Assembly: GCA_013297745.1 (NCBI GenBank)
Contig: JAAFIM010000007.1
Span: forward strand, 747 to 64,746
Direction of reading: 5' to 3'
DNA: 64,000 bases
Source of the DNA: Chitinophagales bacterium
GTDB lineage: Bacteria > Bacteroidota > Bacteroidia > Chitinophagales > Saprospiraceae
Made by a program: the position numbers and the translations under genes. Below are positions 3,177 through 54,153 of this stretch, piece by piece. Under the pieces are notes generated by a model. That model was not told the DNA's origin and made no database searches. It saw nothing but the letters and a program-made list of their open reading frames with translations. The number at the start of each line of letters is the position of its first letter. Positions within the stretch are counted from its first letter, which is position 1.

Positions 3177-3701
3177 TTATTTACCTTTCAGCAATTTATT
3201 CAGATATTTTAGCGTACTTTTTTGGCTGGGCGGGGTAGCATCTCTATTCAGAATTTTACCCGCTTTATCCAACACCAAATAATGGGGGATAGAATAGATA
3301 AATAATTGCGCCAACAAAGGTTGGGCTGCTCCCAAACCGCGCCGATAATGCCGCGCACTGATTGGAAAGGGTTGTTTTTGAACCGCTTTTTGCCACGCTT
3401 CGCTGCTTTCGTCCATTGATAAGTATAAAAACACCACAGGGCGACCAGCCAATTTCTCCGCCAACTCTGCCGAATAGGGCAACTCCTCCAAACAAGGCTT
3501 GCACCAACTCGCCCAAAAATCCACATACACCAAACTATCTTTATACTGCCCAAAAATAGTCGCCAAACTGCTGCTGTCGCTCTTCTCGTTGTAAAAATAA
3601 TGCTCGCTTAGGGTTTGGTTGATGCCTTTGCGCTGCGCTTGTAGAGTATTAACAAACGCTAAAGATAAAATTAGTAAGATAATGAAACTGTATTTGTGCA
3701 T
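3177..3701 (-). CDS. TlpA-like thiol-disulfide oxidoreductase (thioredoxin fold)
   Basis: Signal peptide followed by the WCKPC active-site motif in a thioredoxin-like context (DFWASWCKPCLEELP). Confidence 0.75.
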   Translation of the reverse strand: MHKYSFIILLILSLAFVNTLQAQRKGINQTLSEHYFYNEKSDSSSLATIFGQYKDSLVYVDFWASWCKPCLEELPYSAELAEKLAGRPVVFLYLSMDESSEAWQKAVQKQPFPISARHYRRGLGAAQPLLAQLFIYSIPHYLVLDKAGKILNRDATPPSQKSTLKYLNKLLKGK

Positions 3702-4609: not shown

Positions 4610-4874
4610 AAGTTGTTTAGTAAGAATTTTTCTACATTTTCAATTTAAAAAAATAACCATTTGTGTATTTTAAGCAACAGACTAAAGTCTGTTGTAATCG
4701 TTTTTTTGTCTCTCAACGGGTTAAAACCCGTTGGTATTGATTGATAAAACTGTATAACGCGTGGGACTTTAGTCCCAAAAGCGCGAAAAAATCCTAAATC
4801 TCAATTGTGCTGGGACTTTAGTCCCGCACCATACAGAGAAATTAAAAGATAAAAAAAGCATACTAAACAACTTC
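4610..4874 (+). mobile_element. MITE-like repeat family 2, copy b
   Basis: Starts 3 bp after the stop of 3993..4607. It has the same TIRs and hairpins as 1613..1922. Confidence 0.75.
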
Positions 4875-7435: not shown

Positions 7436-7693
7436 TTATTAGTGTATAGTTATTAGTGATTAGTTATTAGTTATCAATGGTTAGTGATAGAAAATAAAGT
7501 TCGTAAGTTTTTTTAAATACTTTTGCAAACTGCGCAAAGCTATAGTAAATGTTTGCAAAGCCAAAAATTTTCCCGCAAGTCCGCCTCCCAATTAAGAAAC
7601 GAAGTTGCGCGTAAGCGAAAGGGACGGGGAGGGCTAACACACTCCAACAAGCAAACCACGCAAAGCTTTTACCGCTACAATTTCCAAACTCCC

Positions 7694-10153
7694 TTATTCA
7701 AAAATAAGTCTCAACGTAAACGCATTCCAATCCGCCGCCGATTCTCCTTTTTGTCGTTGGCTGCGCAGTTGATTATCAACAGGCTTTTCCATATCTGCCA
7801 AAGGCAAACCATTTTGCAACCATTCGCTAATATCAAACCTGCCCCAACTAATTAGCACTTTTACATACGAAAATTGCGTTTTAGGGTTGCACTCCAACCC
7901 AAATACTTCGCTGCGAGCTTGAGTAAAAGCTATATTTTGATTAGTTGCCAAAGTTGTAGGTTCTATAATCGGCGTAATGCTGTAGTCGCGGCTCATATAC
8001 AGCAGCGCAACCTGCAAACTTTGGGTAGTATCCACTTGATTTTTATAACTCACCGAAGCCGCAAAATTAGCCACCCGCGCACTACCTTTGCTATTGGGTT
8101 GGGTTTGTATCAACAAAGGGCTATATTGGTTAAAATCTTGCTTAATGGGAATTTGATAGGTTTTATTAGCTGCCAAATCCTGTATATGTACGGTCAATTC
8201 TGCCCCCAAAAACGACTGCAAGCGGGCAGGGTGGGGATTGTGCAAAAATAATCTTTGTTTAAACATCGCCATCGTTTTCAACCAACCGCTCACTTCTACC
8301 GCTGACACCAAATCGGCTGGGCTGCTGGCGCGTGTCAAAGGCGTTTGGCGGGGACTGAGTAGTAAAAAACCATCATTTTGGCTGGCTACGTACACATCTA
8401 CGGGCGCATTTTCTGCTATGTTGGTATAAACGGGCAAAAAATTGCATAAAGGGCTGTCTTTAAACTCTGAAAAGTTGGGTTGAGTGCCTGCTTTTATCTT
8501 CAAAAACACCTCTTTGTCTTCAGGCAGTAGATAATCTATCAAACCCGACGTCCAAAATTCCTGATTTTCTACATTTATGGGTATAAATTTTAAAGTTTCT
8601 TCTAGATACTCCTTTGCGATAGCCGCCCAACCGCCCTTTTCTATCTCCCAAGCCTTACCATTTATAGAACGACAGGGGTATTTTTCGCTATCATTTGCCT
8701 TATTCTGCAAAATTCCGAACCGATACAGCAGTCCGCGCGCTGTAGTGGCGTTATTAAAATAGTTTTTGTACAAATAAACCGTGTAATTATCCGCGTACAG
8801 GCTAAATTCTGCATCGTCTTTGCCAATTTCTACCATATCGGGCATATTCTCAGCCAATAAATTGAGGAAAAAGGCGATATTTTCGTTCTCTTTGGTTGGC
8901 AATATGCCCACATTTAGCTTACTCGCGGCAACTACCAACTGTTCTGGGCGAATTTTGACATAAAATAACTCATTCCCGTTTGAATTTTGTACAAAATCGG
9001 GTACATTTTCCAACTCACAGAAGGCAGGGGCAACATAATTCACCCTCGCCACGCCCGTTTTATCCCGCAAGTTGCTAACTTCCACCTCAAAATGTTCGTT
9101 GGATTTCAATATCGGCAGCCCCTGAAGCGCGCCTATGTCTATTTTGTGTTTATATTCTTTGCTAATTCCGTCAAAAACGCTGATTAAATTATAACAAAAC
9201 TGCCTTTTTGCGCTATCTTGGTTCAAAAAACGGCGGAAGCGGGTGGTTTTATCCTCATTTTTGACATAAAGGCTGGGCGTTTGGGGAAACCCTTTTTCTA
9301 TAACCATTCTTAGCCTAATTTCTAACTCGTGGTAGCTGATATTTCCTGCGGTTATTTTCAACAATTTGCATAAATTGGTGGTAAAAATACCGCTTGGGCT
9401 GCCCGTTTCTTTGGTTTCATACGCACATTCGCTGTAGGCGCAAGCGCAGAGGTGTATATGGGGTGCTTCAGGCACCATTTTTTCAAAAGTTTGGGGCGTT
9501 ATTTGGGTAGAATTTTGGGTATTTTGTCGGTTTAAATTGCGGGTTATCTCTTCTGGGAAAGATTCGTACTGATTACTATCTCTTTTCTGCCCAAAGTTGG
9601 GGTGATTTCGGGGCAAAATTTCCCTTTTTTGGTAATTATCCGATTTCAAATCCTCCCCATAAGCGCGGGTGGCGCGTTCAGAATGGCAAGAATCTTGTAT
9701 GAATATAATCTCCACTTCTTTTTTATACATCAAACTGAATAATTGTCTAATCTCTACACTCAAAATATCAAAAATGGGTTTTCCCGCTTCAATAACCCCA
9801 CTATCACAGGGTACTAATGTGGATAAATAGCCCGTAGCCGATTGAAAATAAGGGTCGGCTTTCTCTTGCGAGCCGTGTCCAGCATAAAATAGGCAAAAAA
9901 TATCCCCTTTTTGTAATAAATTGATATGTTGTTGGATAGCCAGCAGTATATTCCTGCGGGTGGGTAAAGCGGTTTCGTTATTTTGGTGAGAACTGTACAA
10001 TTTTACCGTTTTTTGCTGATAAGTGTTTTTATCAATGTACAAATTGGCACAGGACAAAAAGGCTTCTGCATCGTGGATACAGCCGTATAAATTGCTTATT
10101 TTATCGTGTTGATATTTGTTGATAGCTATAGCTAAAGTATAAAATGTGGGCAT
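7694..10153 (-). CDS. Caspase-like (peptidase C14) domain protein with ~500-aa uncharacterised C-terminal region
   Basis: The N-terminal ~300 aa carry a caspase His-Cys dyad in canonical context: FYAGHGS (His) and IQDSCHSE (Cys). The remainder has no recognisable motifs. Confidence 0.7.
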   Translation of the reverse strand: MPTFYTLAIAINKYQHDKISNLYGCIHDAEAFLSCANLYIDKNTYQQKTVKLYSSHQNNETALPTRRNILLAIQQHINLLQKGDIFCLFYAGHGSQEKADPYFQSATGYLSTLVPCDSGVIEAGKPIFDILSVEIRQLFSLMYKKEVEIIFIQDSCHSERATRAYGEDLKSDNYQKREILPRNHPNFGQKRDSNQYESFPEEITRNLNRQNTQNSTQITPQTFEKMVPEAPHIHLCACAYSECAYETKETGSPSGIFTTNLCKLLKITAGNISYHELEIRLRMVIEKGFPQTPSLYVKNEDKTTRFRRFLNQDSAKRQFCYNLISVFDGISKEYKHKIDIGALQGLPILKSNEHFEVEVSNLRDKTGVARVNYVAPAFCELENVPDFVQNSNGNELFYVKIRPEQLVVAASKLNVGILPTKENENIAFFLNLLAENMPDMVEIGKDDAEFSLYADNYTVYLYKNYFNNATTARGLLYRFGILQNKANDSEKYPCRSINGKAWEIEKGGWAAIAKEYLEETLKFIPINVENQEFWTSGLIDYLLPEDKEVFLKIKAGTQPNFSEFKDSPLCNFLPVYTNIAENAPVDVYVASQNDGFLLLSPRQTPLTRASSPADLVSAVEVSGWLKTMAMFKQRLFLHNPHPARLQSFLGAELTVHIQDLAANKTYQIPIKQDFNQYSPLLIQTQPNSKGSARVANFAASVSYKNQVDTTQSLQVALLYMSRDYSITPIIEPTTLATNQNIAFTQARSEVFGLECNPKTQFSYVKVLISWGRFDISEWLQNGLPLADMEKPVDNQLRSQRQKGESAADWNAFTLRLIFE

Positions 10154-10178
10154 AGTTTAGTGGTTAATTATTAATAGT

Positions 10179-10209
10179 TATACAGAATTTAAAAAGTAAG
10201 TGTGTAATA
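10179..10209. repeat. 30-bp motif TAATACAGAATTTAAAAAGNAAGTGTGTAATA (copy 1 of 7; acts as inverted-repeat terminus of composite elements)
   Basis: Other copies lie at 21967..21998 and 26843..26874. Inverted copies lie at 10737..10768, 27102..27132 and 27131..27160. Confidence 0.7.
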
Positions 10210-10232
10210 AGAGCTATTAAGCATTATAATTG

Positions 10233-10496
10233 AAGTTGTTTAGTATGCTTTTTTATCTTTTAATTTCTCTGTATTGTGCGGGACTAAAGTCCCAGCACAA
10301 TTGAGATTTAGGATTTTTTTGCGCTTTTGGGACTAAAGTCCCGCGCGTTATATAGTTTTATCAATCAATACCAACGGGTTTTAACCCGTTGAGAGACAAA
10401 AAAACGATTACAACAGACTTTAGTCTGTTGCTTAAAGTACATAAATGGTTATTTTTTTTAATTAAAAATGTAGAAAAATTCTTACTAAACAACTTT
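10233..10496 (-). mobile_element. MITE-like repeat family 2, copy c (inverted)
   Basis: Reverse complement of copies a/b with the same TIR and the ggactttagtcc, aacgggttttaacccgtt and aacagactttagtctgtt hairpins. Confidence 0.75.
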
Positions 10497-10516
10497 ATTA
10501 TAAAAATAAGCGAGAG

Positions 10517-10672
10517 CGTGGGGTTTTATACCCCACGCGGTAAAGAATCTTATTAGCGTTGGGTTTTACACCCAACGCAAGCAAGAATAAAATTTTATAA
10601 AATTATTTTTGGAGTGTTGGGTGTAAAACCCAACACTTATAAGGTTTATTTTATCTACCGCACGGGGTGTAA
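10517..10672. repeat. Array of four related GC-rich stem-loops (8-bp stems, 7-nt loops)
   Basis: gcgtgggg-ttttata-ccccacgc, gcgttggg-ttttaca-cccaacgc, gtgttggg-tgtaaaa-cccaacac, gcacgggg-tgtaaaa-ccccgtgc. Stems differ but keep pairing, and loops are conserved or inverted. Confidence 0.7.
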
Positions 10673-10851
10673 AACCCCGTGCTATTGTAAAAATCTACAC
10701 TCTTGTAACTCCAATATTTTAAATAATTTATGATGCTATTACACACTCACTTTTTAAATTCAGTATTAGTTGTTGATAATGAATTGATTATAAGTAAAAA
10801 AAGCGAAACTCCTAAAGGTTGGGAATTTCGCTTTTTGTGTGTATGCTATTG

Positions 10852-11235
10852 TTATTCTCGGCTCATCATATTCACTTTTCCGTTGAGTAATGCGCCATTT
10901 TCTACCTGTAGAAATTTAGTTTCTATGTCTCCCTGAACTTGTGCCGAGCGAAAGAGCGCACAGCCGTTGCGGGCTAATATATTGCCGATAATTTTGCCCT
11001 CGCAGACCAATTCCAAACAATCAATATTGCCGTGAATTTGTGCTTGTGGGGATAAAATTAGCCGTCCAGCACAGAAAACATTCCCATTGATTTGCCCATC
11101 AAGGCGCATATTGGCTTCTGTAACTTTAACGCTGCCGTCAATGATTGTACCTGTAGCAATTTGACAAACAGCTTGCACAGGGCTTTGCTCTTGCACCCAG
11201 TCGGTGGGGGCTTCTTTGGTTTTTTTACCGAACAT
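10852..11235 (-). CDS. Bactofilin-family cytoskeletal protein (DUF583)
   Basis: Beta-helical G-x-I/V-x-G periodicity (TGTIIDGSVKV...GQINGNVF...GNIDCLELVCEGKIIGNI). Confidence 0.7.
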   Translation of the reverse strand: MFGKKTKEAPTDWVQEQSPVQAVCQIATGTIIDGSVKVTEANMRLDGQINGNVFCAGRLILSPQAQIHGNIDCLELVCEGKIIGNILARNGCALFRSAQVQGDIETKFLQVENGALLNGKVNMMSRE

Positions 11236-13090: not shown

Positions 13091-14248
13091 TTAAAATCCC
13101 ACTAAAAATTCCCTATCAATATCCATTTGGTCAAAAAAACCACTTGGTGCATCTTTTATCCAATATCCTTCCACTATCGGCACGTGAATAGTTCTTGCTT
13201 CTTGGCTATTTTCATCGCGGTCTATGTAATAAATGGCCACATTATCGGGGCTTATGCCTTTTTTATCTTCAGCAAATTTTTTGCAAGCAACCAAAATACC
13301 ATTGATGAGGTGGTCGCTGTGGGTTTCTACCACCACTTGTACGCCCGCCTGTGCAGCGAGAGCTATTAATTCGGCAAGTTTAGCTTGTCCGCTGGGGTGG
13401 ATATGCGCCTCAGGATTTTCTAATAAAACCAAACCATCTTTGGGCGTAGCCAATAGAGCTAATACCACAGGCAAAGCATAAGAAATACCAAAGCCCACGT
13501 TTTGGGGTTTGTATTCAAGCGATGTAATAAGCCCTGCGGTTCTAAATCTAAAATTAAGTTTCAAAAAATCTTTATTATCAATAATGACCGCTTCAACACC
13601 TTCACTTATTTCTCCAAGCCAAGCGTTTACGTTTGAGGATAAATGTAAGTCATCTGCTTTTTCGTGTTTTAGTTGTATGTTAGCAAGTTCTTTGTTACCG
13701 TTAATACTTAAAACGTGTATTGCGTATTCTGCTTTTCCTTGTTTGTGAGAAATTTGACCTTTCTTTTCAGCAATTCGCCAACTTCTTGAATGGGTTTCTT
13801 TTGGTCCAATATGTTCAGTGGCAATATATTGAAATGCTAGACTTTCACTAAATAAAGCCGCTTTGATAGGAGCAAGAATTTTAGAATCTACACTTAATTC
13901 TAAATTATCTACGCTTTTGTCTACTTCATTATTGGGCAGCACAGGGAATACAAATTTGACATAATGATTTATATTGCTATCAAATTGTAAATCAAAAGCG
14001 ATAAAATTATCTTCAGCATATTCGCACAAAGCATCTTTAGCGTTGCCGACATTTACCAAGTCTTCGTTAAGCACCAAACCTTCTTGGAAAGAAGAACTTT
14101 TTAAATAAGATTGCCGCAATAATAATAAACTTTGTATAATGGAAGATTTACCTGCTCCATTTTTGCCTGTAACAACAGTCAAAGGTTTGCAAGTTAGTTC
14201 TGTATTGAGGTGTGATTTGTAATTTTGAATTTTTAGTTTTGTTATCAT
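13091..14248 (-). CDS. ABC-type/AAA_21-family ATPase (DUF3696-like C-terminus)
   Basis: Walker A VTGKNGAGKSS, Walker B/D-loop VLLENPEAHIHP, H-loop VETHSDHL. Its ATG overlaps the upstream stop in an ATGA quartet. Confidence 0.75.
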   Translation of the reverse strand: MITKLKIQNYKSHLNTELTCKPLTVVTGKNGAGKSSIIQSLLLLRQSYLKSSSFQEGLVLNEDLVNVGNAKDALCEYAEDNFIAFDLQFDSNINHYVKFVFPVLPNNEVDKSVDNLELSVDSKILAPIKAALFSESLAFQYIATEHIGPKETHSRSWRIAEKKGQISHKQGKAEYAIHVLSINGNKELANIQLKHEKADDLHLSSNVNAWLGEISEGVEAVIIDNKDFLKLNFRFRTAGLITSLEYKPQNVGFGISYALPVVLALLATPKDGLVLLENPEAHIHPSGQAKLAELIALAAQAGVQVVVETHSDHLINGILVACKKFAEDKKGISPDNVAIYYIDRDENSQEARTIHVPIVEGYWIKDAPSGFFDQMDIDREFLVGF

Positions 14249-15624
14249 AGTGCAAGTGTTTTGTCAATAATTTCTTTAATTTTTTCGTATCTTATTAGCA
14301 CATTTTGCTTGTGTCCTGTGCCTGTAGTGATGCTGTACGTAAAGTTTTTAGAACCTTGATTATCATTAAATAACTTTACAAACAAAAGATTAAAGTCTTG
14401 TTTGTATTGAACAATTTTTTGCTGTTCTTCTTTACTCAAACGCGCAAAAGAAACAGTTAGTACTTCAAATAAAGCCTTATTGATTGGATTGCGTTTTTTC
14501 TCTGAAATATCAAATCTTTTTCTAAAAGCATAATCCCCAAAAATTTTGCTAAGCGTGTTTATTGTTTCTTCAAACTTTTTTTCGATTTCCAATAAAGTAT
14601 TTTTGTCTGTATTAGTAATTTTTTTCATAACCTTATTTAAAAAACCGTCCATATCTGCTTGGTATTCGCTGTGTGGCAACAAATAAAAAGCTAGAAAACG
14701 AGTTATAAAATCGCAGTCTTCCATACGTTCGGAAGCAATAGCGTTATTGGTAATATCCAAAAAATGCGCGGAACTTGCTAATTTATTTATAAAAGTTGAT
14801 GCTTCTCTTGAATTAAGCGCGTGGCGAATTTCTTGGTCAGTGAGTAATAACCCACTAGTATTAATTCGTTTAAAAAGGTTAAATTTAACGACATCAGGCG
14901 AACTTGCGCTAACAATATAAGCAGTAATTGAAAACTCCTCTATCCTTGCGCGAAGGCTAGGACTTAGTTCCTTAAATGTTTTGTTTTTTAATCCTTGTGC
15001 ATTAAGATACTCTAAACCTTGCAATTTTAAAAAATCTTTATTTTTTCCATCTCCTTTTCCTAAAATAAAATGACTTATGGCGCTTATTCGCTGAAGCCCA
15101 TCTACCACTTGATAAACCCCATTTTCAATTTCCACAAAATAAAAAGCTGGTAATGGAAATGATAATAAAATTGATTCAATAAGTTGACTTTTTTGAGAAA
15201 AATTCCAAAGATGTGCTTTGCGTTGATAGGGCGGATTTAAGTCTATCAGTTTACTTTTTATTCTTGATATAATGTTAGAGATTACCATAGGTTTAACATC
15301 TATTCTAACATCTTTAGGATTTAGAAAAACATTTCCTACATTATCACTTTCATAGTTTTCTAGAAATTCTATTTCTTTTTCTACTTTTTGGCTTTTGAAA
15401 GAATAACAATTTGACTTACCTATTTTAATACAATCTATACTTTCGTCATATACTCTCATTTCTGGATTGGTTAAAGTGCTCAATGCAGAAGACACAGAGG
15501 CTTGCGGAGTTTTAGTTTCAAATATAAAATAATTCTTTTCCACAATGTAATCGTGGATTTCTTTAGCAGTAGCTGGTCTGCCTATTTCCTCCATTGCTAT
15601 TTTGCACGCTTCAATAAGTGTCAT
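14245..15624 (-). CDS. DUF262 (ParB/Srx-like, DGxQR) domain protein with N-terminal HTH (HARE-HTH-like)
   Basis: VVDGLQRISAI is a DGQQR-type motif. The N-terminal ~70 aa are a winged-helix-like module. 459 aa. Confidence 0.7.
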   Translation of the reverse strand: MTLIEACKIAMEEIGRPATAKEIHDYIVEKNYFIFETKTPQASVSSALSTLTNPEMRVYDESIDCIKIGKSNCYSFKSQKVEKEIEFLENYESDNVGNVFLNPKDVRIDVKPMVISNIISRIKSKLIDLNPPYQRKAHLWNFSQKSQLIESILLSFPLPAFYFVEIENGVYQVVDGLQRISAISHFILGKGDGKNKDFLKLQGLEYLNAQGLKNKTFKELSPSLRARIEEFSITAYIVSASSPDVVKFNLFKRINTSGLLLTDQEIRHALNSREASTFINKLASSAHFLDITNNAIASERMEDCDFITRFLAFYLLPHSEYQADMDGFLNKVMKKITNTDKNTLLEIEKKFEETINTLSKIFGDYAFRKRFDISEKKRNPINKALFEVLTVSFARLSKEEQQKIVQYKQDFNLLFVKLFNDNQGSKNFTYSITTGTGHKQNVLIRYEKIKEIIDKTLAL

Positions 15625-18862: not shown

Positions 18863-18896
18863 AATGATAAAATATAAAGGTTAGAGAAAATAAAAA

Positions 18897-19610
18897 TTAT
18901 CTGTGTACAGAAGTGGGAAAGTATGGGCTAAAATCGTCGTTCCAACTTGGTTTTGATTTTACATACCAAATTTTAAACGCTAAAAATTGGCTTTCAGGTT
19001 GCAATTCTGCTTTTATTCTGTCTGCGTAGATTGCTTGTTCAGGCTTATTTTCGTTGTCGTAAAAATCATCTTTAAGTTGGGTCAAATCTGCCATTGCTTC
19101 TACAAGCAGTTTCCGCAAAGCGGCCGCTTTCATCCTGCTAGCGGCTGGAGGTTTATAAGTTGAGTCTATTTTACAATCTGCATTATAAATCCGAGAAAGT
19201 AATTTTACTGTGTTTAAAGTAGTTGGGTCAGTTTCTGTGGTAGAAATATCTACTTTTTCCTTTGGATTTTTAAAGGCTGTTAGGAGAAAAGAAATTTTTT
19301 CGGCTATCAAAATTTGTGAGTTTGTACAATCTAAAATATCGCTAAACGATTCACCGCTTTTCCGCGAGTTGCAATAACTACAAGCGTACATTAGATTATT
19401 CCAATTAAATTTTTTATGAGGGTTAGTATAACCGTTTGTTGTGTGATTTTGATAATGTTCAACTATAAAATCTGTATCAATTTTTTTCTCGCATAAGTAG
19501 CATTTATGATGAAAATCTGCTTGCAATCGATTCAAAACATCTTCATCGTCATACTTTTTTTGCGCTGCTAAAGAAGTGGGCGCAGGTTGGGATTTATGAA
19601 AGTTTATCAT
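18897..19610 (-). CDS. HNH endonuclease (PtuB-like)
   Basis: HHKCYLCEKK...EHY...NLMYACSYCNSRK is an HNH/His-Me finger signature. It overlaps the upstream ATPase gene by 17 nt. Confidence 0.65.
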   Translation of the reverse strand: MINFHKSQPAPTSLAAQKKYDDEDVLNRLQADFHHKCYLCEKKIDTDFIVEHYQNHTTNGYTNPHKKFNWNNLMYACSYCNSRKSGESFSDILDCTNSQILIAEKISFLLTAFKNPKEKVDISTTETDPTTLNTVKLLSRIYNADCKIDSTYKPPAASRMKAAALRKLLVEAMADLTQLKDDFYDNENKPEQAIYADRIKAELQPESQFLAFKIWYVKSKPSWNDDFSPYFPTSVHR

Positions 19611-21087
19611 AACTGCTAATTTTTGCTTGATACAATTCCTTAGTTTCGGCTAATAAAATTTTAATCTCAGCAGCGCGAAATTTTGGCATTTCTTGGAGTT
19701 GATTGCGCAATTTTTGCAGCATTTGTATATCTTTTTTCGTGGGTTGTTCTAAGCTCAACAAATTTTCATAGTCTGCTTTTATTTGGTTCAGAAAGTTAGA
19801 AAATTTATCCACTTCAAAATGCGTTTCCACTATCGCTTCAGCAGGAAATCCAACTAATGGCTCATTTATAAGGTTATGATTTTCCAAATCATAAACTACT
19901 GCGTTATCTATAGAGGATAACACATAAGGCGAATGGCTGCTTACAATAAACTGTATATTTGGGAAAAAACTGGTTAAAAATGGTAAAATTTGCTTTTGCA
20001 GTGCAATGTGTAGATGAGTTTCTATTTCATCGATTATTACTATTCCCTGTATATTCTCAGGTTCAGCATACCACATTATTTTTTTAAATAAGTTATCTAT
20101 ACCTTCGCTATGAGAAGATACGGGAATAGACCGTCTTCTATTTTGGTGTGTAGATATTGTTGTTTTTATTTTTTCAATTCTAAGCAAAATTTCTGATAGA
20201 ATATAAACAATGGACTTAAACCCGTCTGACAACTGTTGTAAGCCTACAGGCTCGCGGCCTGGTAACTTTACATCAAAATAGTAATTGCGAGAATCGAATG
20301 TAAATTTAAATTCATTTCTTTCAATTTCTGAAATTTCAAAAATACTGCACAAGTAACTTTCAAAGATGTTGAACCAATTTTCTACTTCCGCTACTTCATC
20401 TTCATTTTTATTTAGTGAAGAGAAGGCTTGCTGTATGCGTTTTTGCATCAAATAGTGGATAAATTGAGAGTTTGCTTGTTCTCTAATACCTTGCTCTTCA
20501 AATTTGAATGCCTGAGTTGATTTTTCTGTTTGAGGTTTTAGAAAATCAAAATCACGTTGTGCTGGAATATAAGCAGTTACAAAAGGAACTTCGTAATAAT
20601 CAATAAATCCGTAAACTAATTGGTCAGTTGCGGAAAAATTGATTTTTCTTAGCCAATTTTCACTATTTTTACCTAACAAACTGACACTACCAAGTCGCTG
20701 TCGAGCCCCAAACCGAGCCCCAAAATCAATGGCTTGTTGTTCAAACTCATTATCAGAAATATGATTTTCTAATAGATTGATGTCGTCTAAAGAAAGATTA
20801 GAGTTTTCTTTAGCTTTTAGTAAGCTTTGGTGACTTATTTTTAGCTGGGCTTTAAGAGAAGATGTGTGAATTTGGAAAGTGGCACTTGAATATTCATTAG
20901 TTAAGTCTTGCAATTTATCGCGTATTTCTTCCAACACGGAACTCTTACCACTCCCATTTTTTCCTGTGAGGATTAGGTGGCGGCGAATATCTTTACCAAT
21001 TTCTATATGAATACGGCGTAGGTGGCGGCATTTTAGTATAAAAATATCAGTTAGAAAGTACTGCTCATAAAGTCCGTCCTTTTCCAT
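19594..21087 (-). CDS. AAA_21/ABC-type ATPase (PtuA-like)
   Basis: Walker A LTGKNGSGKSS. Walker B/H-loop VIIDEIETHLH...SSHSP. 497 aa. Visibly AT-richer than the adjacent Fe-S gene. Confidence 0.7.
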   Translation of the reverse strand: MEKDGLYEQYFLTDIFILKCRHLRRIHIEIGKDIRRHLILTGKNGSGKSSVLEEIRDKLQDLTNEYSSATFQIHTSSLKAQLKISHQSLLKAKENSNLSLDDINLLENHISDNEFEQQAIDFGARFGARQRLGSVSLLGKNSENWLRKINFSATDQLVYGFIDYYEVPFVTAYIPAQRDFDFLKPQTEKSTQAFKFEEQGIREQANSQFIHYLMQKRIQQAFSSLNKNEDEVAEVENWFNIFESYLCSIFEISEIERNEFKFTFDSRNYYFDVKLPGREPVGLQQLSDGFKSIVYILSEILLRIEKIKTTISTHQNRRRSIPVSSHSEGIDNLFKKIMWYAEPENIQGIVIIDEIETHLHIALQKQILPFLTSFFPNIQFIVSSHSPYVLSSIDNAVVYDLENHNLINEPLVGFPAEAIVETHFEVDKFSNFLNQIKADYENLLSLEQPTKKDIQMLQKLRNQLQEMPKFRAAEIKILLAETKELYQAKISSYDKLS

Positions 21088-21089
21088 AG

Positions 21090-21881
21090 TTAAAGTCCAT
21101 TGCTTTTGACTATCAATTCGGACAAATCCAACACCATAATACTATCTTGGCGTTCTTTTTCCTTGATGCCGTCTTGCAACATTGTGATACAGAAAGGGCA
21201 GTTGGCGGCTACTATAGTGGCGTTGGTTTCCAACAATTCTTCGGTGCGGGCTGTATTGATGCGCTTATTCCCTTTTTCGTCCTCTTTGAACATCTGCGCG
21301 CCGCCTGCTCCACAGCATAAACCGTTGGCGCGGCTGCGTTTCATTTCCACCAAATCCGCGTCCAATTGAGCCAATAATTCGCGGGGGGCTTCGTACACTT
21401 CGTTGGCGCGGCCGAGATAGCAAGAATCGTGATAGGTGATTTTTTTCCCTTTAAATTCGCCCCCTTGCACTTTCAACTTGCCTTCATTGACCAAAGATTG
21501 TAAAAATTGGCTGTGGTGCAGCACTTCATAAGAACCGCCCAAGGCTGGATATTCATTTTTGAGGATATTGAAACAGTGGGGGCAAGCGGTTACGATTTTT
21601 TTGACCTCGTACATATTCAACAGCATTATATTCTGTTGCGCTTGAGTTTGGAATACAAATTCGTTGCCTGCGCGGCGGGCTGGGTCGCCCGTGCAGTTTT
21701 CTTCTTTACCCAAAACGGCAAATTTTATCCCAACTTCGTTCAAAATTTTGCACATTGCTACAGTGATGCGTTGGGCGCGTTGGTCAAAACTACCAGCACA
21801 GCCCACCCAAAATAAAATTTCTGGTTTGTCGCCTGCTGCGTACATTTCTGCCATTGTGGGAATAACTAAAGGCTTGTTCAT
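21090..21881 (-). CDS. (Fe-S)-binding protein with two cysteine-rich CCG domains (LutA/GlcF/HdrD-like)
   Basis: VGCAGSF...TACPHCFN and GLCCGAGG...ANCPFC motifs. Confidence 0.75.
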   Translation of the reverse strand: MNKPLVIPTMAEMYAAGDKPEILFWVGCAGSFDQRAQRITVAMCKILNEVGIKFAVLGKEENCTGDPARRAGNEFVFQTQAQQNIMLLNMYEVKKIVTACPHCFNILKNEYPALGGSYEVLHHSQFLQSLVNEGKLKVQGGEFKGKKITYHDSCYLGRANEVYEAPRELLAQLDADLVEMKRSRANGLCCGAGGAQMFKEDEKGNKRINTARTEELLETNATIVAANCPFCITMLQDGIKEKERQDSIMVLDLSELIVKSNGL

Positions 21882-22028
21882 AATTATTAGTTGTTAGTGG
21901 TTAGTTGTTGATTAGCAATAATTTGTATGATTTTTGAATAAAGAGTAAATTTTTGTTCTGCGGAAATAATACAGAATTTTAAAAATAAGTGTGTAATAGT
22001 GGTATAAATTATTAAAGACATCAATTAT

Positions 22029-22252
22029 AAAAACTTGTGTTTTGAAATTTTTTTAACGGCTTACGCCTAAAAATTTTTTTTCTTCGTACTTTTTGCAGGC
22101 GCAAAAAGTACCAAAAACGCCCTGTTTCTATAAACTTGTTCGCTCCGCTTGCTAAAGCTGCGCTCCGTCTCACTTCAGACAGTATAGAAACTCAACGGAT
22201 TGGTGTAGTTACGCGCTTCGCGCGATTTTTTACTTTATTTTTGTCTACTTAC
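22029..22252. repeat. Structured repeat family 1, copy B (inverted relative to copy A)
   Basis: Reverse complement of copy A. The terminal gtctacTTAc supplies the stop codon of CDS 22249..22470. Confidence 0.8.
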
Positions 22253-25321: not shown

Positions 25322-25465
25322 ATTTTTTGGCTCGTTAATGAAAAAATGGCGATTAAATGTGGGCGCAAAGTTAGGTAAAATTTACAGAATTAAAACAGTA
25401 AAAGTACAAAAAAGGTTGAAAAATTAACTTTTTGGGAAAAAAAATGTAAAAAAATGTAAAAAAAT

Positions 25466-39604: not shown

Positions 39605-40312
39605 ATGTTGAAACCATTTCCATTGTTAGCAATAGCTTTTATCATTGCGGCTTGCCAACCTCTGCCCACAATCGACGCTTTGCCCGAGATGGTAAAGGTG
39701 AAAGTTTATACAGAATTTTGCCCGAAAGGGAAAAATAACTATGTGGAAATCAGCAATTTAGCTGGGGTAGAAAATCAACCTCTATTGGCAAAGATAAAAA
39801 CGGCTGTAGATAATTCTTATTTTGAAGGGGCAAAACCCAACGATATAAACGCTTATTTTCGCCAAGTGTGTGCGGGAAAAATAGCCGATAAAAAGATTAA
39901 AGAGGCGAATATCTACCACAACAAAAACGGTTTATTGAGCATACAAACGGATATTCACGCGGAAATTTTTTTAGAAGAATGGGCTACTTATGACCTGTAC
40001 AAGGGAGAATTGATAATGTTAAACTCGCAAATAAACCCAGAAAAATTGGCTTCGCTGGATAATTTTATCCTCCAAAACATCCCAAATATAAAGGAAATTC
40101 AAAACGTACAACCCAATTTCAACCCCAAATTGTCGGGTAGATTTTATCTTCGCAACGAAACGGAGTTGGTGCTGGAGTGGATAACCGATAAAACCCAATT
40201 TGGGGAAAATTTCTGCGCCGATTACAAATGCGGGGGAGAAGTCGCCATTCCAAAGGTTGTGTTGAAAGATTTTATTATAGAAACTAGCCCTTTGCGGCGT
40301 TTTATTGAATAG
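39605..40312 (+). CDS. Hypothetical lipoprotein
   Basis: MLKPFPLLAIAFIIAAC lipobox. Confidence 0.45.
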   Translation: MLKPFPLLAIAFIIAACQPLPTIDALPEMVKVKVYTEFCPKGKNNYVEISNLAGVENQPLLAKIKTAVDNSYFEGAKPNDINAYFRQVCAGKIADKKIKEANIYHNKNGLLSIQTDIHAEIFLEEWATYDLYKGELIMLNSQINPEKLASLDNFILQNIPNIKEIQNVQPNFNPKLSGRFYLRNETELVLEWITDKTQFGENFCADYKCGGEVAIPKVVLKDFIIETSPLRRFIE

Positions 40313-51018: not shown

Positions 51019-52635
51019 TTAAGGGATAAAAAAGCGTTGTGTTTCTATACTTTCAGCCGTTTGTACAGCTAAAATATAAAAGTTGTTGGGCAATAAAGTT
51101 TCCAAATTGTTTAAATCTAAAATGTTATCGCCCGCTTGTAAAGTCGTTTTGGGCTGTTGATATAACACTCTACCCATAAAATCATAGATATAAACTTGAG
51201 CTTGTTGTTCTGTTTCGGAGTATAAAATGTAACTTTTGGGTTGACGCGGTAAAATTGTTATACTTTTCTTTATTGGCACTGTAGGAACTGGTGTGCTGGT
51301 TTCTGGAGTACAAGGCACTACAGCAATCCACTGTGTTTGTTCACTCGTTGGCAAACAACCCGTTTTAGAAGTCATAACCCTAATTCTATAGTTTTTACCC
51401 ACTTGAAAGTTATAATTGCAAAAAGTACGCAAGTTAATCTGTCCCAACTGACCGCTATATTGCTGCATAAAATGATTGCCTAAAATAATATTAGAACCAC
51501 CCGTGCTAACCTCAAAAATTTCTATCAAATAACTATCTTCATTGAAACTACCGCGTCCGTCAAGCGGCACATCTACAGGAAAATATCCACCGCCTACTTT
51601 AGCACGAGCGCAAAATTGCGGGTTAATAGTATAAAAAGTATTAGCAGGCAAACAACCAGCGCAACTGTGTACATAATTTCGCATATAACCGTTGCTAAGT
51701 TTGTTGTGTATGGTATCTATTTGGCAAGGGCTTAAAGCAGCAGGGTGTTCAGAATAAGACATCATATTATTACTTTGAACACTCCAATTATTCAAACAAA
51801 TTACAGGGTCGGAGTCATATATTGACCAACAATTCGGGTGGTCTGGTGTGTCTTCACAATAGTCGCCCCAATATGGCGCTACATTTGTATTTTCATAATC
51901 GTGATAAGTAAGTCCACACAAATGCCCAATTTCGTGGTTCAATAAATCAGCTGCATAAGCAGAACCCCAGCTTGGATATTGCCCATATTTAAACCAGCAA
52001 TCCATCATTTTTGTAGCAGCACCATTCTGAAAACCTGCCATACCGCCAGAACGCGGTTGATTAAGAATATAGATGTTTATTGTATTCAGTGTGTTTACGC
52101 CGTAGAGGACATTTAGTGAAAAACTTCCATTGTCGTTAGTATTCCAGTAAGTACTTTTATGCCAATATACGCCATTAAGTAACAAACGCACCCGCATTGG
52201 GATAAATTTATTTGCTGTGCCGTTATATTGCCATACGCCATAATCGCCAGCATCTTGATGTCCCCAAATCACATTAGCTTTTTCTACCATTTCTTCGGCG
52301 AAAGTGTAGCCCGTGTAATTTGAATTGCCGTAGCCGTCCTCGTGTGGTAAAAAATTATTGCCGCCAGCATCATCCAGCATAAAATGCACATTTACGCGTA
52401 CATTTTTGGTGGCTGTGGGCGAATTGCAGGGCGGAAATCGCAACCTATACTCTTCCAACTCTGCCGCTGTAGGTTGGGGAATTTCGGCACGCTGGCTTTC
52501 CTCAAACAAACAATGATGTTGTCGCGTTTGTGCTTGAGTTATCTGCATAAAACAGCAGCAAATCAACGTTAAATAATACGGTAAAAATAGGCTTTGCCTA
52601 TTCTTTTGTTTGTGTAAATGCTTTATTTGTAGCAT
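51019..52635 (-). CDS. M43 (pappalysin/cytophagalysin-like) zinc metalloprotease with T9SS C-terminal domain
   Basis: HEIGHLCGLTYH zinc-binding motif. The C-terminus NFYILAVQTAESIETQRFFIP is CTD-like. Signal peptide present. Confidence 0.7.
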   Translation of the reverse strand: MLQIKHLHKQKNRQSLFLPYYLTLICCCFMQITQAQTRQHHCLFEESQRAEIPQPTAAELEEYRLRFPPCNSPTATKNVRVNVHFMLDDAGGNNFLPHEDGYGNSNYTGYTFAEEMVEKANVIWGHQDAGDYGVWQYNGTANKFIPMRVRLLLNGVYWHKSTYWNTNDNGSFSLNVLYGVNTLNTINIYILNQPRSGGMAGFQNGAATKMMDCWFKYGQYPSWGSAYAADLLNHEIGHLCGLTYHDYENTNVAPYWGDYCEDTPDHPNCWSIYDSDPVICLNNWSVQSNNMMSYSEHPAALSPCQIDTIHNKLSNGYMRNYVHSCAGCLPANTFYTINPQFCARAKVGGGYFPVDVPLDGRGSFNEDSYLIEIFEVSTGGSNIILGNHFMQQYSGQLGQINLRTFCNYNFQVGKNYRIRVMTSKTGCLPTSEQTQWIAVVPCTPETSTPVPTVPIKKSITILPRQPKSYILYSETEQQAQVYIYDFMGRVLYQQPKTTLQAGDNILDLNNLETLLPNNFYILAVQTAESIETQRFFIP

Positions 52636-52765
52636 AATACAAAATTTAAAAGGTTATAAAAAAGTTATATTGTCGTTAAGACCGTACAAATGTATACTTT
52701 TTTTATTTATATACAAGCACTTTTATTTTAAAAAATCGTTTATAATTTTAAAAATAAATAAGATT

Positions 52766-53939: not shown

Positions 53940-54014
53940 GGGCGGTTAGCTCAGCTGGTCTAGAGCATCTGCCTTACAAGCAGAGGGTCACAGGTTCGAA
54001 CCCTGTACTGCCCA
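53940..54014 (+). tRNA. tRNA-Val (anticodon UAC); no encoded CCA
   Basis: A cloverleaf can be folded by hand: acceptor GGGCGGT/ACTGCCC, D-arm GCTC...GAGC, anticodon loop CTTACAA, T-arm ACAGG-TTCGAAC-CCTGT. Confidence 0.9.
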
Positions 54015-54078: not shown

Positions 54079-54153
54079 GGGCGGTTAGCTCAGCTGGTCT
54101 AGAGCATCTGCCTTACAAGCAGAGGGTCACAGGTTCGAACCCTGTACTGCCCA
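54079..54153 (+). tRNA. tRNA-Val (anticodon UAC), identical duplicate; CCA encoded
   Basis: Identical 75-nt sequence to the first copy, followed by CCA. Confidence 0.9.

Follow-up and report, generated by a model that had tools for sequence, protein, structure and literature searches.

Miniature non-autonomous DNA transposons (MITEs) of prokaryotes are typically shorter than 500 bp and reach up to about 1 kb (PMC10969869, PMC4596501). In type II MITEs, the similarity to an IS is confined to the terminal inverted repeats, or TIRs (PMC10969869). The closest precedent within the same phylum for one set of ends around unrelated interiors is found in P. gingivalis, whose MITE-like families BrickBuilt, MITEPgRS/464, MITE239 and MITE700 have near-identical TIRs and unrelated interiors and are known to nest into other mobile elements (PMC4596501). 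The TIRs of these families are 11-22 nt long and match IS5-family ISPg elements (GAGACC...), and their target duplications are variable (PMC4596501).

Here we describe a set of motif-bounded units that resemble type II MITEs in being AT-rich, intergenic and 285-585 bp long, in having 29-bp TIRs, a short target duplication and no transposase gene, and in forming several dispersed copies that are present or absent between close strains. They differ from type II MITEs in that the right end is long (~66 nt conserved) and asymmetric, and in that no parent IS or match appears in the collections searched. Compared with the P. gingivalis families, the TIR is longer (29 bp) and has an unrelated sequence, the target duplication reads T(A/T)A, and no matching IS is known.

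The window (the whole 64-kb stretch of DNA that was analysed) can be placed in Saprospiraceae-like Bacteroidota because its TrhO and SucA are 65-68% identical to their Saprospira and Aureispira homologues. At three mismatches or fewer, it contains six copies of a 32-nt motif, TAATACAGAATTTAAAAAGNAAGTGTGTAATA; the number of chance copies expected from 100 dinucleotide shuffles is 0. The copies are:

10178-10209, plus strand: motif copy 1
10737-10768, minus strand: motif copy 2
21967-21998, plus strand: motif copy 3
26843-26874, plus strand: motif copy 4
27100-27131, minus strand: motif copy 5
27130-27161, minus strand: motif copy 6

An earlier note on this DNA had counted seven copies while listing six. 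Six exist, the next best site having 10 mismatches, and the coordinates given there hold to within 1-2 nt.

In each of the six copies the sharp edge of conservation faces outward, at the outer T, and the copy reads TA followed by C(A/T)G. The inverted pairs 10178/10737 and 26843/27100 proposed in the earlier note are upheld by this outward boundary. Within each pair the TIR arms agree at 27 of 29 positions, an arm difference of ~7%. On the inner side, similarity runs on for ~36 nt past the motif in copies 2, 3 and 5, so that a right end of 66-68 nt is common to three loci. The 68-nt right end at 27064-27131 is 80% identical to 10703-10768 over 66 nt (E=6e-12) and gives a 90% match to 21967-22034. 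TAA or TTA adjoins all eight motif ends examined in the window and in L038, a contig from a relative.

Close relatives were found by cluster look-ups, and their contigs are 90-97% identical to the window in nucleotides. Several of them have empty sites, and the insertions can thereby be resolved. The first locus lies in the spacer between the bactofilin and caspase genes and is laid out as follows (positions without a strand are unstranded features):

10178..10180: left copy of the target-site duplication TTA; the relative L034 has a single TAA
10181..10209, plus strand: 29-bp left TIR (copy 1), matching the right TIR at 27/29 positions; missing from L034
10232..10496, plus strand: copy c of family 2, a nested MITE that has TIRs of its own (GAAGTTGTTTAGTA) and lies between ATT at 10229-10231 and ATT at 10497-10499
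10516..10682: four-hairpin array, a self-complementary palindrome, either native core or a further nested element
10703..10736, minus strand: subterminal right-end segment, common to the right ends of loci 2 and 3
10737..10765, minus strand: 29-bp right TIR (copy 2), from the motif search; missing from L034
10766..10768: right copy of the target-site duplication TTA, from the L034 comparison

L034 is colinear with positions 1-22557 of the window. Read in gene orientation, its empty site is ...cattatcaataac TAA ctattaataattaaccactaaactATG (ctattaat...ATG) with a single TAA, and the filled site of the window is ...cattatcaacaac TAA TACTGAATTT...585 bp...AAATTCTGTA TAA ctattaataattaaccactaaactATG. 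The insert begins TACTG and closes CTGTA in this orientation. The BLAST segments on its two sides both include L034 8837-8839; the flanks are 90-94% identical, and nothing in them has changed apart from the insert and the 3-bp duplication. The whole segment 10181-10765 is thus inserted DNA, which may have moved as a single piece or have grown in place. It follows from the empty site that the motif is most probably composite, a 3-nt T(A/T)A target duplication joined to a 29-bp terminal inverted repeat, TACAGAATTTAAAAAGTAAGTGTGTAATA. We also considered a 2-bp TA duplication with the boundary after position 2 and rejected it, as the L034 empty site shows 3 bp.

The locus-1 unit is 585 bp long, of which 265 bp are the nested family-2 MITE. 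The earlier note had stated that this pair encloses family-2 copy c and the four-hairpin array, and both are seen by alignment. Over 168 nt the array is 75% self-complementary, and it occurs nowhere else in the window. Rfam gives only generic hairpin-type matches at this locus, far below gathering scores; across the window, Rfam 15 reaches gathering score at two tRNAs only, and the motif has no family there. The target is a TAA within an A/C-rich (CTAAC-type) leader tract before the caspase gene. The ATG of that gene is at 10153 on the minus strand, with the motif 24 nt upstream of it and the insertion 27 nt upstream of the metacaspase start. This nearness is explained by the insertion having hit a TAA in the leader tract. 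The upstream region of the orthologous caspase gene in L034 lacks the motif wholly.

The third locus, in the spacer between TPR and DUF5606 genes, is more complex:

26485..27172: 688-bp repeat block, missing from the close relatives L039, L040 and L041
26843..26874, plus strand: copy 4, the TAA triplet and 29-bp left TIR of element C
26875..27063, plus strand: family-1 core of element C without family-1 TIRs, aligned to copies A, B and D
27064..27131, minus strand: 68-nt right end of element C, comprising the subterminal segment, TIR copy 5 (27100-27128) and a TTA triplet
27130..27161, minus strand: copy 6, an extra right-type TIR adjoining copy 5 (30-nt period)

The spacer is 113 nt long in L039, L040 and L041, to which the window adds the 688 bp; in the more distant L030 it is 86 nt. 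Within the block are element E, which is family-1-like, element C, copy 6 and the 10-nt duplication. An 11-nt direct repeat, ATGAAAAAAAG, borders the block at 26474-26484 and 27173-27183, and the BLAST segments around the locus overlap by the same 11 nt. An element that duplicates 3 bp does not account for this repeat, and neither TIRs nor a simple insertion history were found for the 688-bp block.

Element C itself can be delimited through L038. At 202-492 this contig contains a 285-bp copy that ends in the motif on either side and is surrounded by unrelated flanks; its identity to window 26842-27129 is 90.7%, with L038 204-493 aligned to 27129-26842 in reverse. The element C unit (283 bp between triplets in the window) therefore occupies two genomic sites, locus 3 and another locus in L038. 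Since the L038 unit stops at copy 5, the mobile segment of locus 3 comprises copies 4 and 5 and what lies between them; copy 6 is additional. A pairing of copy 4 with copy 6, which would give TAA/TAA, was rejected because the shared unit stops at copy 5. Around the C-type copies the window has TAA/TTA and L038 has TTA/TAA, so that in both cases the two triplets disagree at the middle base. The mismatch could be a feature of the mechanism, or it could be due to mutation, given the difference of ~7% between the arms. With the C-type triplets mismatched, the clean 3-bp duplication is proven at locus 1 only.

Locus 2 has a single motif copy, at one end of a hybrid element:

21967..21969: host TAA triplet adjoining copy 3; the counterpart is TTA at L034 680-682, within the PIN gene
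21970..22248, plus strand: hybrid element B, delimited by alignment of the family-1 copies and by comparison with L034

Element B has the motif TIR (copy 3, 21970-21998) and the right-end segment on one side, followed by a family-1 core and then, at the far end, by family-1's own TIR. Homology to L034 extends to window position 21970 and includes the triplet. The gene order is DUF2281-PIN-CCG in L034 and DUF2281-B-CCG in the window. L034 342-679, a stretch of 338 bp that makes up most of the PIN/VapC toxin gene, is missing from the window, and element B stands exactly there; its motif end adjoins the host TTA inside PIN, and its family-1 end adjoins the DUF2281 stop codon. The simplest history that we can infer is that two elements inserted in like orientation and that their cores then underwent homologous recombination. 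Copy 3 lies 85 nt upstream of the ATG at 21881 (gene 21090..21881, minus strand). The earlier note was thus right that the motif is close to two minus-strand ATGs, at 24 nt (10153) and 85 nt (21881). The region upstream of CCG in L034 has no motif and contains the 3' end of the PIN gene instead. Two other explanations of this locus were set aside with the closer relative at hand. The 92% relative L027 had suggested that the end of element B supplies the DUF2281 stop codon, but L034 has the same C-terminus and stop. The distant contigs L022, L027, L030 and L031 had suggested a synteny breakpoint, in place of which L034 shows a local 338-bp deletion.

Two further families of short elements are interwoven with the motif-ended units. 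Family 2 has three copies, at about 1613-1922, 4611-4874 and 10232-10496. In L034 the sites of copies a and b are empty and show a 3-bp duplication, TTT, and family 2 is itself a MITE. Copy c shares 96% identity with copy b; having TIRs of its own and ATT on both sides, it is truly nested inside the motif-ended element of locus 1. Family 1 has four copies (A, B, C and D). Copies A and D have the family's own ends (TA followed by AGTAAGTAGACAAAA...) with TA on both flanks. In copy C the core is present and both family-1 ends are replaced by motif ends, and copy B combines a family-1 end with the motif right end at its opposite side. Core identity is 93-99% (97% over 138 nt for C against A), whereas the ends are unrelated, and this combination argues for module exchange rather than gradual divergence. 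Element C is accordingly better described as a probable chimeric or subfamily element ended by the motif than as a nested family-1 passenger. The proposal that the second pair encloses family-1 copy C is thus correct as to the core, but family-1's own termini are missing. The broader idea of nested passengers applies to family-2 copy c, which has its own TIRs and 3-bp repeat, but not to family-1 C, which is without its own TIRs. That the same termini surround different cargo is clear when the hairpin palindrome at locus 1 is set beside the family-1 core of locus 3 and L038.

We conclude that the motif-bounded units very probably represent a MITE family of Saprospiraceae-like Bacteroidota, characterized by a 3-bp T(A/T)A duplication and a 29-bp TIR. 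The units are insertions that are missing from very close relatives, with a precise 3-bp duplication at locus 1. They are spread over three loci in 64 kb and one site in L038, and the orthologous sites are empty in L034 and L039-L041. The units carry no gene; the only ORFs of at least 60 aa that touch the elements encode 67-68 aa (10730-10936 and 26802-27005), and the elements consist of hairpins and further repeats. Pfam annotation finds no transposase or recombinase domain in the 64-kb window, and no autonomous element with motif ends was found in the window or in the collections scanned. Small size, TIRs, a flanking target duplication (at locus 1), the lack of transposase coding and dispersed copies with evidence of mobility are the features by which a MITE is recognized, and all of them are seen here. 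The suggestion in the earlier note that the motif is the terminus of a non-autonomous element is confirmed by the empty sites in close relatives and the 3-bp target duplication. The motif-ended element seems to have jumped in recently. The family would be a new one of a well-known type, with no autonomous partner among the data searched.

By analogy with all characterized MITEs, the units would be mobilized in trans (PMC10969869). A transposase encoded elsewhere in the genome would bind the 29-bp ends, cut out or copy the element, and integrate it at TAA/TTA with duplication of 3 bp. The internal sequence may have been exchanged or captured, giving the hairpin palindrome core at locus 1 and the family-1 core in C. 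Later, a family-2 MITE would have inserted into the locus-1 element. The family may also act as a substrate for homologous recombination: a family-1 copy and a motif-ended copy would have recombined into hybrid B, and this event would have deleted 338 bp of the intervening PIN toxin gene.

The target triplets invite a comparison with two large groups of transposons. IS5-family and PIF-Harbinger elements, together with Tourist-like MITEs, make 3-bp TWA/TNA duplications. At locus 1 the duplication is likewise 3 bp long and of the form T(A/T)A, and T(A/T)A adjoins 8/8 ends, but no DDE transposase partner was found for the motif elements. Membership of the motif family (ends TACAG...) in this group is only a lead. 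Bacterial MITEs derived from IS630/Tc1-mariner elements (Correia, RUP, Nezha) have a TA duplication, and Tc1/mariner ends read TA followed by CAGT. The motif sequence TA followed by C(A/T)G and the TA flanks of family-1 A and D are reminiscent of these. However, locus 1 duplicates 3 bp (TAA), and a 2-bp reading needs asymmetric ends; among the motif-ended copies, a 2-bp TA duplication fits L038 only.

It is tempting to go further and to regard the 29-bp ends as a currently active, cargo-swapping MITE platform. One transposase would then move units whose interiors are swapped among MITE families, and the elements would remodel genes, as where the VapC-type toxin is deleted and the metacaspase is uncoupled from its upstream region. 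The transposase would possibly belong to an undescribed group, since no matching IS occurs in 185,579 representative genomes. We consider this extended reading improbable. In a weaker variant, the paired ends would be used also as inversion sites.

Other explanations were weighed as well. Could a single ancestral repeat have given rise to the copies by segmental duplication or recombination, with no transposase moving them? Recombination and slippage are certainly at work here, as hybrid B, the tandem copies 5 and 6, the 10-nt duplication and the 11-nt repeat all attest. Yet the insertion at locus 1 is a precise one that, apart from a 3-bp duplication, left the flanks unchanged, the element C unit sits in unrelated flanks in L038, and every end has the same sharp boundary. 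This makes an origin by duplication or recombination very unlikely.

Bacteroidota are known for DNA-inversion switches, and the motif pairs might be the inverted repeats of invertons, flipped by one invertase encoded elsewhere and switching, for example, the caspase gene. One inverted-repeat sequence around different interiors at several loci is what such a system would look like, and the first pair ends 24 nt upstream of the caspase ATG. However, relatives lack the whole segment including the repeats, and the 3-bp duplication at locus 1 is a signature of transposition. Of the three paired units, two (pair 2 and the L038 copy) are situated where the 3' ends of neighbouring genes converge and there is nothing to switch. 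Moreover, the arms within a pair mismatch at 2/29 positions, the window encodes no recombinase, neither end has a Bacteroidota promoter consensus nearby, and one copy is solitary, ending a hybrid element. We regard inversion as highly unlikely. The suggestion of a common recombination site likewise finds no support, as the window has no recombinase and both the duplication and the absence from relatives indicate transposition.

There is little reason, too, to see in the motif a regulator binding site or promoter element for the downstream minus-strand genes, with the pairing incidental. Copies 1 and 3, at 24 and 85 nt upstream of ATGs, would be well placed for such a role, and a look-alike of the outer half adjoins an ATG at 52635 and is kept in L038. 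But the upstream regions of caspase and CCG in L034 do without the motif, and half of the copies (4-6, between convergent 3' gene ends) face the 3' ends of genes. Sharing reaches 66 nt at the right ends and extends to whole 285-bp units, and the Bacteroidota -33/-7 promoter consensus (TTTG/TAnnTTTG) is found on neither strand of the motif. A regulatory site is therefore barely credible. The chance is close to negligible that the outer half is one half of a palindromic host target, TACAGAATTTAAATTCTGTA, hit by different MITEs, with only the inner half, AGTAAGTGTGTAATA, as transposon end: the inner half does resemble the family-1 end AGTAAGTAGACAA, and the outer-half look-alike does stand alone at 52635, but no unsplit palindrome occurs in the window at three mismatches or fewer, the two halves are never apart in six copies, and the L034 empty site has neither half, the whole 29 bp having come with the insertion.

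We return to the MITE family and its distribution. The motif does not occur in ~89 kb of loci from the relatives L022-L032 (75-92% protein identity). Its core gives chance-like matches only in 185,579 GTDB representative genomes (one per species), chance-like isolated matches only in JGI metagenome contigs, and one chance match in IMG/VR viral contigs; blastn against a plasmid collection gives no match. The sole extended match of the genome scan is L012, a lead to Thiotrichaceae or a large sulfur bacterium. We rejected this link, as only 22-30 nt are shared, the rest is unlike the window, and the window proteins are Saprospiraceae-like. As far as the collections show, the motif family seems limited to the lineage of the window. 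A literature search on Saprospiraceae MITEs found nothing relevant.

The value of the case lies in empty sites resolved to the base pair, together with a nested insertion, a chimeric subfamily and the deletion of a toxin gene associated with a MITE, all in the little-studied and mostly uncultured Saprospiraceae. It is a small case study of interior exchange in MITEs and of micro-rearrangements; it adds no new kind of system and will not surprise a specialist. It matters mainly for annotation and assembly. The motif repeats plausibly break the metagenome contigs of this lineage, and the contigs of a more distant relative are only 4-9 kb long. Strains that have or lack the metacaspase insertion form a natural pair in which an effect on expression could be looked for.

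Finally, several sites could be mistaken for a seventh motif copy. The next best site of a profile and Hamming scan, at 25380 with its 10 mismatches, lies in conserved intergenic DNA that is alignable with relatives. At 39706 there is only a 14-nt match within a coding region. At 27150-27170 the outer tip of copy 6 is re-duplicated in tandem with a period of 10 nt and could pass as another copy. At 52635-52651 the outer half alone matches at 16/17 positions next to an ATG. The look-alike is present at the orthologous position in L038, so this is not a recent copy; it is either host leader sequence or a very old remnant.

The hybrid MITE (copy B of family 1; 21970-22248) coincides with the loss of a gene. 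The 97% identical relative L034 has an intact PIN (VapC-type) toxin gene; most of this gene (L034 342-679) is missing from the window, and the gap left by the missing sequence is occupied exactly by the hybrid MITE. The upstream gene, which encodes an antitoxin-like DUF2281 protein, is left without a partner in the window.

The entire 688-bp repeat block that includes copy C is bounded by an 11-nt direct repeat, ATGAAAAAAAG (26474-26484 and 27173-27183), and the block enclosed by these repeats is absent from the relatives. No element whose ends match accounts for this 11-nt repeat. Within family 1, a 15-nt hairpin segment that reads AGGCGTAAGCCGTTA in copies A, B and C is flipped to TAACGGCTTACGCCT in copy D (55730-56003), a micro-inversion within a MITE.

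Copy A is located within one of the CTAAC(A/C)A-type repeat tracts that lie directly 5' of start codons in both the window and its relatives, where they occupy the place of a Shine-Dalgarno sequence. It is because of this location that copy A is surrounded by a direct repeat of 14-17 nt.

CTAAC(A/C)A-type tracts in the window and in relatives
10154-10177, window
21882-21915, window
7436-7480, window
3180-3249, L031 (more distant relative)
1310-1344, L022 (more distant relative)

A sequence resembling the outer half of the motif (the target duplication and terminal inverted repeat of the MITE family) (52635-52651; 16/17 identity) adjoins the start codon of a 538 amino acid gene and is retained in the close relative L038 (8356-8375). 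None of 60 sequences simulated with a first-order Markov model contained such a match. This look-alike is either the remnant of an old element or a type of host sequence from which the tip of the element was derived.

In the MAG of a more distant relative, different MITE-like and hairpin repeats occupy the same intergenic positions or ones close by (L027 470-680; L031 5712-6123), and contigs of this MAG terminate in them. Invasion of these spacers by repeats is thus recurrent across the lineage.

Between the CCG gene, which neighbors the hybrid element, and a 212 amino acid gene lies a two-gene module (18866-21098) encoding an AAA_21 ATPase (497 amino acids) and a 237 amino acid protein; it has no counterpart in L034 or L022. 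The neighboring GmrSD/AAA pair (13091-15624) shows 74-81% identity to L034, only where alignable, and its flanks show 90-97%. This resembles a fast-evolving defence island.

Elsewhere in the window, a gene on the plus strand (30756-33245) encodes an 829 amino acid protein in which the shoulder domain of the Major Vault Protein (E = 1.2e-29) is accompanied by a Vault_3 repeat; this bacterial vault-protein homologue is also kept in the close relatives L037 and L039. Two tRNA genes (53940-54014 and 54079-54153) form a pair with 99% identity, 139 nt apart. A 21-nt tandem repeat (five copies, 57468-57593) lies just upstream of a gene with its end at 59215, and an 18-nt tandem repeat (seven copies, 61935-62096) lies within an 890 amino acid open reading frame (61092-63764).
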